From NCBI RefSeq assembly GCF_003334385.1, contig NZ_QOWN01000131.1: 1,053 nt of DNA; one strand, 5' to 3'. This stretch comes from Escherichia coli (GTDB lineage Bacteria; Pseudomonadota; Gammaproteobacteria; Enterobacterales; Enterobacteriaceae). Shown piece by piece: positions 1 to 1,053 of this stretch. Position 1 is the stretch's first letter, and each line of letters begins with the position of its first letter. The position numbers and the translations under genes are program-made. Below the pieces are notes generated by a model. That model saw only the letters and a list, made by a program, of their open reading frames with translations. It did not search any database and had not been told where the DNA came from.

Positions 1-102
1 AAATCGCGTCAGTACAGTAAACGCGCTGGTGGCGGTGAATACCTGTCTTTCAGCTTGCTGGCTTTTTCGACAAGAGTTATTGGTGTGTCACGTTAACCGG
101 AA

Positions 103-115: not shown

Positions 116-313
116 ATGCTGAAACAGCAGGATATGACCGAAACCGCCAGAGTGGTGTTTAATGAATTAAGTGCCACCGAACCGGCGACAGTCGGGGAGA
201 TTGCGCAGAATACTTACCTTTCACGTGAACGCTGCCAGTTAATACTGACCCAGCTTGTTATGGCGGGGCTGGCAGACTATCAGTTCGGTTGTTACAGACG
301 CCTTCAGTCCTGA
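116..313 (+). CDS. Small hypothetical protein, 65 aa, putative winged-helix DNA-binding protein
   Basis: ATG 116 with SD-like AAGGGA 7 nt upstream; stop TGA 311-313. Translation: MLKQQDMTETARVVFNELSATEPATVGEIAQNTYLSRERCQLILTQLVMAGLADYQFGCYRRLQS. The pattern (T-x-x-EIA ... hydrophobic helix LILTQLVMAGL ... aromatic/basic tail) resembles small wHTH regulators such as MarR-like or PapI/FaeA-like proteins; this is pattern-based inference, not a database hit. Frame 2 is open from the window start, so the ORF track's GTG 29 or a start outside the window cannot be excluded; ATG 134 is another in-frame alternative. Confidence 0.55.
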   Translation: MLKQQDMTETARVVFNELSATEPATVGEIAQNTYLSRERCQLILTQLVMAGLADYQFGCYRRLQS

Positions 314-327
314 AGGCTTTTTTATTT
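300..327 (+). terminator. Rho-independent (intrinsic) transcription terminator
   Basis: Perfect 7-bp stem GCCTTCA (300-306) pairing with TGAAGGC (311-317), 4-nt loop GTCC (307-310), followed by the T-tract TTTTTTATTT (318-327). The stop codon TGA (311-313) of the upstream ORF lies inside the stem. On the minus strand the hairpin is not followed by a U-tract, so it is unidirectional. Confidence 0.7.
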
Positions 328-340
328 GTGGTAAATGGGC

Positions 341-371
341 GGCTGGTGGGTGTTAGGGGCACTCACCAGCC
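341..371. repeat. GC-rich imperfect inverted repeat / stem-loop (12-bp stem, 7-nt loop), function unknown
   Basis: GGCTGGTGGGTG (341-352) pairs with CACTCACCAGCC (360-371): 11 Watson-Crick pairs plus one G-T (G-U in RNA) at 349/363; loop TTAGGGG (353-359). No downstream U-tract (followed by ATCTGCTCATGCG). Confidence 0.5.
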
Positions 372-412
372 ATCTGCTCATGCGTCCGGATCACAAGCAA
401 ACCTCAGGCCCA

Positions 413-431
413 CTGCTTTGCGCAAAAGCAG
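413..431. promoter_or_regulatory. Imperfect palindrome, candidate operator or protein-binding site upstream of the methyltransferase gene
   Basis: CTGCTTT-GCGC-AAAAGCAG: half-sites CTGCTTT (413-419) and AAAAGCAG (424-431) are reverse complements apart from one extra A, centred on GCGC. Located 33-51 nt upstream of ATG 464. A weak sigma70-like pair (TTGCGC 418-423, 16-nt spacer, TATCAG 440-445) overlaps it, but the -10 is poor. Confidence 0.3.
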
Positions 432-463
432 AATGAGCCTATCAGAGACAGGCTTAATGATCC

Positions 464-1053
464 ATGCTTAGTACTGTAAAAATATCCAGTTGTGAGTTAA
501 TCAACGCCGACTGCCTGGAATTTATCCGGTCGTTACCCGAAAATTCTGTTGACCTGATAGTCACGGACCCGCCGTACTTTAAAGTGAAGCCTGAGGGCTG
601 GGATAACCAGTGGAAGGGCGACGATGATTACCTGAAGTGGCTGGACCAGTGTCTTGCGCAGTTCTGGCGGGTGCTGAAACCTGCCGGAAGTCTTTACCTG
701 TTCTGTGGCCATCGCCTGGCGTCTGACATTGAAATCATGATGCGTGAACGCTTCAATGTGCTGAACCATATTATCTGGGCGAAGCCGTCCGGACGCTGGA
801 ACGGGTGCAACAAGGAAAGCCTGAGGGCATATTTCCCCGCCACAGAGCGCATTCTGTTCGCGGAACATTATCAGGGGCCGTATCGCCCGAAAGATGCCGG
901 GTATGAGGCGAAGGGCAGGGCACTGAAACAGCATGTGATGGCCCCGCTGATTTCTTACTTTCGTGATGCGCGTGCTGCCCTGGGGATAACGGCAAAACAG
1001 ATTGCTGATGCCACAGGAAAGAAAAACATGGTGTCGCACTGGTTCAGTGCCAG
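464..1053 (+). CDS. DNA methyltransferase, beta-class amino-MTase (N6-adenine or N4-cytosine; DPPY favours N6-adenine), 5' partial - C-terminus beyond window end
   Basis: Frame 2 is open from ATG 464 to the window end (196 codons, no stop). The only canonical in-frame start after the TAA/TGA stops at 455-460 is ATG 464. Translation begins MLSTVKISSCELINADCLEFIRSLPENSVDLIVTDPPYF... Motifs: DLIVTDPPYF (residues 31-40, catalytic motif IV), RVLKPAGSLYLF (residues 69-80) and HIIWAKP (residues 102-108), in the order typical of the N6_N4 MTase family with motif IV N-terminal. The AdoMet-binding motif I (FxGxG type) is expected downstream, outside the window. SD is weak (ACAGG 448-452, 11 nt upstream). 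Confidence 0.9.
   Translation, partial: MLSTVKISSCELINADCLEFIRSLPENSVDLIVTDPPYFKVKPEGWDNQWKGDDDYLKWLDQCLAQFWRVLKPAGSLYLFCGHRLASDIEIMMRERFNVLNHIIWAKPSGRWNGCNKESLRAYFPATERILFAEHYQGPYRPKDAGYEAKGRALKQHVMAPLISYFRDARAALGITAKQIADATGKKNMVSHWFSA
472..491. promoter_or_regulatory. LexA (SOS) box-like palindrome inside the 5' end of the methyltransferase ORF
   Basis: TACTGTAAAAATATCCAGTT: CTG (474-476) - 10 nt AT-rich spacer - CAG (487-489), with 5' TA flank. Matches the E. coli LexA consensus TACTGTATATATATACAGTA at 16 of 20 positions, with all six core CTG/CAG bases intact. Lies at +9 to +28 relative to the A of ATG 464, which is atypical for a LexA operator. Confidence 0.4.

Follow-up and report, generated by a model that had tools for sequence, protein, structure and literature searches.

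M.EcoGII is a prophage-encoded, beta-class DNA methyltransferase of Escherichia coli O104:H4, of which C227-11 also has M.EcoGI, likewise a non-specific adenine methyltransferase, and it methylates adenine in any sequence context, in double-stranded DNA, single-stranded DNA and RNA (Murray et al. 2018, PMC5778455). In vitro, up to 99% of the deoxyadenosine (dA) of a DNA substrate is methylated and many restriction enzymes are blocked (PMC5778455). Both M.EcoGI and M.EcoGII are silent in the lysogen, and their constitutive expression is harmful, M.EcoGII slowing growth (PMC5778455; silence and toxicity are also treated in PMC12707154). Reconstructed ancestors of the clade are reported to be largely non-sequence-specific, in assays done on RNA, and the nearest site-specific relative named in the same work is M.PflMI (CCANNNNNTGG) (PMC11551740). 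In this paper we describe a methyltransferase gene of this kind in E. coli. Its first part lies in a stretch of 1,053 nucleotides of contig NZ_QOWN01000131.1, the whole of which is referred to below as the window, and the 41 kb of DNA around it in an identical genome record, of strain SCU-104, are referred to as L001.

The gene belongs to a known and characterised family, and its exact allele is already in RefSeq. Comparison of the locus with M.EcoGII and with related phages places the gene, as an orphan, in the late operon of a lambdoid prophage. The explanation that best accounts for the locus as a whole, and one that we consider probable, is that this is an M.EcoGII-type gene expressed under the control of the antiterminator Q, the product of which methylates phage DNA before packaging.

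The ATG that opens the gene is followed by 196 codons without a stop up to the end of the window. This part of the protein holds the motifs DPPY (amino acids 35-38, nt 566-577), RVLKPAGS (amino acids 69-76, nt 668-691) and IIWAKP (amino acids 103-108, nt 770-787), and a helix-turn-helix-like target-recognition domain begins at about nt 941. The window is 100% identical to E. coli chromosomes such as NZ_CP053284.1, and in the identical genome record the full open reading frame (ORF) is intact, encodes 352 amino acids and ends at a stop codon. Motif I (FxGxG) is present there as FFMGSGS at amino acids 309-315, outside the window and at the C-terminal end of the protein. The order of motif IV, target-recognition domain and motif I makes the enzyme a member of the beta class. 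An original prediction, made from the letters of the window without database searches, had called the gene a beta-class amino-methyltransferase with motif IV at the N-terminal end and had pointed to the downstream DNA for motif I and for a possible frameshift or stop; motif I is where it was expected and the frame runs through uninterrupted.

Profile and structure matches agree with this class assignment and lie far beyond chance. Pfam PF01555 (N6_N4_Mtase) covers residues 29-340 with an E-value of 4.7e-43, PHROG 6025 covers residues 1-203 with an E-value of 1e-106, and beta-class methyltransferases of solved structure in the PDB, among them M.RsrI, CcrM, M.MboIIA and DpnA, match with E-values of 1e-14 to 1e-25. 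The matches to NCBIfam models all fall under the curated cut-offs of those models. A Dam-type (GATC) orphan of the alpha or gamma class was considered and rejected, since motif IV precedes motif I and the beta class accounts for the best matches in NCBIfam, Pfam and PDB alike.

Within the beta class the protein is about 94% identical to M.EcoGII and belongs to the M.EcoGII family. The reference sequence (GenBank EGT69837.1) was taken from the machine-read text of Table S1 of PMC11551740, which contains evident reading errors. Against this text the protein is identical at 328 of 349 positions overall, at 191 of 196 (97%) in the part encoded by the window and at 73 of 78 (94%) in the target-recognition domain. 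A natural allele of 349 amino acids in public assemblies is identical to the window protein at 331 of 349 positions and differs from the printed M.EcoGII in eight alignment columns, several of which are evident reading errors; this allele was not confirmed as EGT69837.1, and an exact-sequence look-up of a hand-corrected guess at M.EcoGII gave no match. The gene for the natural allele occupies the equivalent place in its own prophage, after Q and a 65-amino-acid ORF and before the lysis genes. Two of the reconstructed ancestors, Anc291 and SUPREM, are 82% and 70% identical to the window protein, and most of the residues at which the window allele departs from M.EcoGII are found in another relative or in a reconstructed ancestor. 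Non-specific N6-adenine methylation is therefore predicted for the window allele by homology, and the claim that its target specificity could not be read from the sequence has been overtaken by this near-identity, which includes the target-recognition domain.

DNA similar to the window was found in 2,206 of 5,426 complete E. coli genomes (~40%), with no more than eight copies per genome. Only 13 of 4,818 matching places are on plasmids. The suggestion that the gene is on a mobile element, from a prophage or a plasmid leading region, stands for the prophage and is unsupported for the plasmid: L001 is a lambdoid prophage adjoining ompW. Its early part carries integrase and excisionase genes, CI-like and Cro-like regulators, replication genes, RusA and Q. 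These are followed by a lambda-like PR' promoter, a terminator, a 65-amino-acid ORF, a second terminator, a leader of 130 nt, the methyltransferase gene and tRNA genes, and then by an ORF of 142 amino acids, genes for the small RNAs (sRNAs) STnc100 and AsxR/AgvB, a NanS-p-type esterase gene, and the holin, lysozyme, terminase and head and tail genes. The methyltransferase gene is therefore the second ORF of the late operon. In E. coli the same methyltransferase cassette is preceded by Q genes of three unrelated families, and it occurs also in prophages of Salmonella and Klebsiella. A pair of a regulator and a methylase between q and the tRNA genes has been noted in 45-kb Stx2a phages, that is, phages carrying a Shiga toxin (Stx) gene (PMC8456039).

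In the DNA that follows Q, the alignment with lambda shows TTGATT, a spacer of 17 bp, TAAATT and then AACGAT, where lambda has TTGACT, TAAATT and AACGAT. The -35 and -10 elements, the AACGAT pause element and an intrinsic terminator with a canonical hairpin thus lie in this order just upstream of the window (coordinates are given in Table 1). A second hairpin, with a run of T residues, follows the 65-amino-acid ORF, the stop codon of which (311-313) falls in its 3' arm. Its predicted folding energy is -10.5 kcal/mol (z-score -3.4), and its stem is found in other genera with altered letters, as GCTGCCA/TGGCAGT, GCCTCCA/TGGAGGC and GCCTCCC/GGGAGGC. No sigma-70-like promoter was predicted on the + strand between Q and the tRNA genes. 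The methyltransferase gene therefore follows Q, PR'/qut and tR', shares their strand and precedes the lysis genes, with no predicted promoter between. It had been proposed that the gene has its own regulatory region; for a promoter this does not hold, while a terminator and a conserved structured 5' leader do precede the gene. Short terminated PR' transcripts have been documented in Stx phages (PMC7547250), and the comparative paper on pR' does not mention the methylase.

On these data the following course of events is proposed. The enzyme would be a dimeric beta-class methyltransferase, dependent on S-adenosylmethionine, that methylates adenine at N6 essentially regardless of the sequence around it. 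In the lysogen, transcripts begun at PR' would end at the terminators, so that the toxic enzyme would be absent. After induction, RNA polymerase modified by Q would pass both terminators and the enzyme would be made late, when it could methylate the adenines of replicating, concatemeric phage DNA ahead of packaging. The DNA of the virion would then be protected, on entry into the next host, from the many restriction systems that N6-methyladenine (m6A) blocks. The activity without sequence specificity, the toxicity and the silence in the lysogen are here carried over, by homology, from the literature on M.EcoGII, and Q-dependent expression, methylation of virion DNA, a benefit against restriction and a part of the leader in keeping translation low are inferred. 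The silence reported in lysogens finds a concrete basis in the placement of the gene behind PR' and two terminators, which also accords with the toxicity of the enzyme. An epigenetic role in the lysogen, one of the roles that had been suggested for orphan methyltransferases of this type, is unsupported.

Several points weigh against this explanation. About 20 residues differ between the window allele and M.EcoGII, for which the comparison sequence is the error-bearing machine-read text, and two residues of the target-recognition domain, D203 and D220, were seen in none of the other sequences compared. For the promoter and the terminators, the calls come from consensus scans only. Plasmid DNA modified by M.EcoGII transforms E. 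coli four to five orders of magnitude worse (PMC5778455), so that heavy methylation could be costly to the phage, and it would also lay the phage open to m6A-dependent nucleases. No paper was found that shows hypermethylated virion DNA for these phages, and searches of the literature for work on these enzymes in their native context (induction, virion DNA) returned nothing relevant. Finally, the prophage of SCU-104 is annotated with a frameshift in a replication gene, a truncation of a DUF1627 gene and a frameshift in the portal gene (L001:12897-13944, 14432-14722 and 34016-36600). The prophage may be defective, or the assembly may be erroneous, and in the former case it may never complete a lytic cycle in the source strain.

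These annotations lead to the rival explanation that survives best, namely that in this host the gene is a silent, functionless passenger of a decaying prophage, a reading that is compatible with the biochemical assignment and to which we give a modest weight, as unlikely. It is in keeping with the frameshifted genes and with the description of the M.EcoGII element itself as a cryptic prophage (Murray et al., PMC5778455). Against it, frameshifts in assemblies can be sequencing errors, and several unrelated isolates carry the methyltransferase ORF intact and in identical form, motifs and leader included; the wide occurrence of similar DNA in complete E. coli genomes, moreover, includes inducible Stx phages.

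It is distinctly less likely that the gene encodes a sequence-specific orphan methyltransferase that is active in the lysogen, either as an epigenetic regulator or as a protection from one restriction system. The product name in RefSeq and other NCBI-derived records, 'site-specific DNA-methyltransferase', would suit such an enzyme, site specificity is known for M.PflMI, which among characterised enzymes outside the M.EcoGII clade is the closest relative, and the window allele has a few unique substitutions in its target-recognition domain. Yet M.PflMI is just ~27% identical to M.EcoGII, the window protein resembles M.EcoGII at the level given above also in its target-recognition domain and its charged linker, and the far more distant reconstructed ancestors are reported to be still non-site-specific. 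Homologues are without a detectable motif in the methylomes of lysogens, and activity in the lysogen is further opposed by the lack of a predicted promoter and by the two terminators upstream. The label 'site-specific' is probably wrong for the M.EcoGII-like family.

Less likely again, and improbable in our judgement, is that in nature the enzyme acts mainly on RNA, be it late transcripts of the phage, the adjacent phage tRNAs or RNA of the host, and not on DNA. M.EcoGII does methylate RNA and DNA:RNA hybrids in vitro, and phage tRNA genes stand immediately downstream of the gene. On DNA, however, the initial rate is ~90-fold above that on RNA (11.12 against 0.12; Table S3, PMC11551740), and the near-complete methylation of dA in DNA in vitro compares with ~30% of adenines in RNA. 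Nor is the linkage to tRNA genes universal, as the cassettes of Salmonella and Klebsiella run into other late-region genes, either straight into holin or into an ORF with a TerB domain and then holin.

That the gene supplies the modification half to a complete system of restriction-modification or of some other defence can practically be dismissed: PADLOC returns methyltransferase models only, of which the best is labelled 'Type II methyltransferase', but there is no restriction endonuclease gene within 20 kb on either side, the DNA downstream holds tRNA genes and a small ORF and, past these, genes for sRNAs, an esterase and lysis, the sole HNH gene nearby is terminase-associated and 7 kb off, and the same arrangement, with no nuclease in the module, is repeated in more than 80 related loci. 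The methyltransferase is thus an orphan on a prophage, as had been proposed. The small ORF and the next ORF downstream match no PADLOC model. Three Klebsiella loci (L095, L097 and L098) also carry a large cytosine-C5 methylase of PF00145 in the early region upstream of Q, so that each of these prophages has two different orphan methyltransferases.

The DNA between the second terminator and the gene is a leader that is non-coding, yet conserved above the synonymous sites of its own gene. Nucleotide identity to the window is 77.5% in Salmonella and 68% in Klebsiella for the leader, against 43% and 47%, respectively, for the third codon positions of the methyltransferase gene. The leader begins with an invariant 21-mer, AATGGGCGGCTGGTGGGTGTT (334-354), which holds a Chi octamer at 342-349. 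In a scan of species-representative genomes for exact matches, the 21-mer was found in 29 stretches, the sources of which include E. albertii, Enterobacter, Citrobacter, Kluyvera, Klebsiella, Kosakonia, Buttiauxella, Mangrovibacter, Mixta, Providencia and Morganella. In 26 of the 27 loci with enough downstream DNA it precedes the start of an M.EcoGII-like gene by 129-134 nt; the proteins encoded beside it are as little as 55-62% identical to the window protein. A search for an exact word itself selects for conservation; the divergence of the companion genes still makes the 21-mer informative. The leader travels with the methyltransferase gene and not with the 65-amino-acid ORF. The exact 21-mer is present as well in two assemblies labelled Bacteroidota, a metagenome-assembled genome of Candidatus Coprenecus (L115) and a Chryseobacterium sp. 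(L125), the second of which also has the methyltransferase and the winged-helix ORF described below; these cases look like contamination or mis-binning and not like real host range.

The leader is also predicted to fold. The z-score of the folding energy is -4.75 for positions 290-480 and -6.1 for a hairpin at the 5' end. In an RNAalifold consensus of 32 distinct leaders, this hairpin pairs 335-350 with 362-381, and the long-range helices 388-392/459-463, 395-397/453-455 and 407-409/437-439 bring the pairing to an end at the base before the AUG. Pairing is retained in 98% of cells, compared with 23-45% when the partners are slid along the alignment. Changes on both sides of a pair occur in five pairs (12 cells), a number reached by at most 4 of 500 shuffles, as in Providencia and Morganella, where GGA:UCC replaces AAG:CUU. 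The sequences on which the structure was tested are the ones from which it was derived, and no more than one or two clades supply the double changes. The substitutions in the 3' arm of the hairpin all keep pairing by way of G-U pairs, which are workable only in RNA of the + strand. When only E. coli was considered, no linked changes were seen in the long-range helix, as variants there recombine freely, and the helix was supported only once other genera were added. A further hairpin at 437-455 was dropped because it is broken in common variants. There is no obvious Shine-Dalgarno sequence before the ATG of the methyltransferase gene.

The 21-mer also opens a mini-ORF (ATG GGC GGC TGG TGG GTG TT, MGGWWV..., 335-358) with two adjacent Trp codons. 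This frame, of 33 amino acids at 335-436, was not called a gene, since it is unconserved and in most of the other genera compared meets a stop after seven codons (MGGWWVL); no convincing ribosome-binding site was seen for the ATG at 335.

Rfam, searched at permissive thresholds, has no family in the leader, and neither the element nor a 15-mer from it was found in the literature that could be searched. The conserved structured leader may therefore be new. We suggest, with slightly less than even confidence, that it is an undescribed cis-acting RNA element dedicated to genes of the M.EcoGII family, which would hold translation of a toxic enzyme low or time it, perhaps together with the 65-amino-acid winged-helix protein, or else that the Chi-bearing block is a conserved recombination linker by which the methyltransferase module is moved between phages. 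It could serve as a translational control element, as a linker, or as both.

Three Chi sites in the same orientation lie within 520 bp, at L001:19823 and at the two places in the window, and they straddle the end of Q and the methyltransferase leader; the 41-kb locus as a whole has nine Chi sites on this strand and four on the other. The Chi site in the untranslated stretch near the start of the window is not kept in all relatives (L026 has GCTGGCGG), and the second Chi site of the window, at 342-349, makes up the 5' arm of the leader hairpin and does not vary from genus to genus. In Stx2c phages the match to the window starts only at position 333, the join at about 333 lying just to the left of this Chi site, and PhiR5_1 and phiSTEC1575-Stx2k match it only up to 353-362. 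The mosaic junction at about 333-360 indicates that the small-ORF module and the methyltransferase module recombine independently, with the break next to Chi.

The original prediction had described the upstream neighbour as a small DNA-binding-like protein, which agrees with our results at the level of fold only. The AlphaFold2 (AF2) model of the 65-amino-acid protein (mean per-residue confidence, pLDDT, 90.9) has three helices and a beta-hairpin wing. In Foldseek searches it resembles wHTH (winged helix-turn-helix) domains of the IclR and MarR type as well as dimerisation domains of O-methyltransferases, with TM-scores of 0.7-0.8, so that 'DNA-binding-like' is suggested by the predicted fold. 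The ORF matches PHROG 331 (E-value 1.8e-37) and is labelled 'TrmB family' in some records; matches to Pfam wHTH families are weak (TrmB, E-value 0.0013), searches of PDB sequences gave insignificant matches only, and NCBIfam and PADLOC gave none. Homologues with 77-100% identity are found across the Enterobacteriaceae. The ORF is upstream of the methyltransferase gene in all 81 close relatives with enough flanking DNA. It occurs without the methyltransferase gene in PhiR5_1 and in one Klebsiella locus, and eight distant loci have the methyltransferase gene without it; the two are thus separable.

Table 1. Positions of features in the window (1,053 nt) and in the surrounding 41-kb locus (L001)
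Feature	Window	L001	Strand	Basis and remarks
Q gene		19068-19889
PR' region		19890-19993		Alignment with lambda
First intrinsic terminator hairpin		19972-19993		Terminator scan and fold
Chi octamer GCTGGTGG	25-32		+	Exact-match scan; untranslated stretch between the PR'-proximal terminator and the small ORF
65-amino-acid stand-alone winged-helix protein gene	116-313		+	ORF list and RefSeq annotation; first ORF after the Q/PR' region
Intrinsic-terminator-like hairpin with T6	300-323		+	GCCTTCA-GTCC-TGAAGGC; terminator scan
Structured 5' leader of the methyltransferase module	334-463		+	130 nt; conservation, fold z-score, RNAalifold and pair counts
Methyltransferase gene, 5' part	464-1053		+	First 196 of 352 codons; M.EcoGII-family beta-class N6-adenine methyltransferase
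Full methyltransferase ORF		20464-21522		Genome record 100% identical to the window
Two phage tRNA genes		21563-21724
142-amino-acid ORF, labelled TolA-like		22003-22431
STnc100 and AsxR/AgvB sRNA genes		22538-22804		Rfam matches; AsxR/AgvB on the opposite strand

Downstream of the window, two phage tRNA genes start 40 nt past the stop codon of the methyltransferase gene. The first has a CAU anticodon and is called tRNA-Ile in RefSeq and Met by ARAGORN, and the second is tRNA-Arg(UCG); in relatives an argO (UCU) tRNA is found in addition to these or in their place. The TolA-like-labelled ORF fills the slot in which Stx phages carry stx, and past it lie the Rfam matches to STnc100 (179 bits) and AsxR/AgvB.

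For studies of methylomes or of Stx phages in E. coli, the practical consequence is that non-specific m6A should be expected from these genes on induction. The fixed place of the gene behind Q, PR' and two terminators offers a concrete and testable explanation of why it is silent in lysogens, a question that the M.EcoGII papers did not answer. The leader, with its embedded Chi site and its conservation from Escherichia to Providencia and Morganella, is a candidate for an element that controls a toxic phage enzyme. To the earlier account of the window these results add the specific family, with an activity that is likely non-specific, the place in the late operon, a winged-helix fold for the neighbouring protein, and the leader. 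M.EcoGII itself is sold by NEB (New England Biolabs).

The window allele shares with M.EcoGII the motif order of the beta class and is nearly equal to it in length (352 against 349 amino acids), its C-terminus being three residues longer. At position 191 it has S, as do the reconstructed ancestors, where M.EcoGII has P. M.PflMI has the beta-class fold and a similar predicted target-recognition domain in common with these enzymes but differs in its site specificity and in being without the charged linker, and the window protein is clearly on the side of M.EcoGII.

Among described phages the best match to the window is 1720a-02 (AGR48369.1; 97% nucleotide identity), which Murray et al. name as the carrier of a very similar methyltransferase (PMC5778455), and phiP27 (L24, NP_543076.1) is 89% identical. 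The same gene fills the equivalent slot of these two phages and of the Stx2a, Stx2c and Stx2d phages, with Q on one side and the ileZ/arg tRNA genes on the other; the cassette lies directly upstream of stx2 in 1720a-02 and phiP27 and upstream of tRNA genes in Stx2c phages. Stx phages carry stx past the tRNA genes, whereas the prophage of the window has the 142-amino-acid TolA-like ORF there. Phage 1720a-02 has the first, PR'-proximal terminator in common with the window prophage, and its promoter and Q are different.

The arrangement of -35 element, -10 element, AACGAT pause element and intrinsic terminator is that of the PR'-qut-tR' region of lambda, from which the 6S RNA is made. With the start placed near L001:19929 by alignment with lambda, the terminated RNA is predicted to be only ~65 nt long, and by the lack of an Rfam match it is not StxS. 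The prophage of the window differs from both lambda PR' and StxS in having a second terminator, past the small ORF.

A functional parallel is the Mom function of phage Mu, which is likewise a late, lysogen-silent modification function, as are others of this type, with a broad protective modification that is toxic if mis-expressed (PMC12707154). Mom is an unrelated protein with a different chemistry and a different control, while the window gene would be governed by Q antitermination and a structured leader. Control of Mom is exerted through Dam, OxyR, C and Com.

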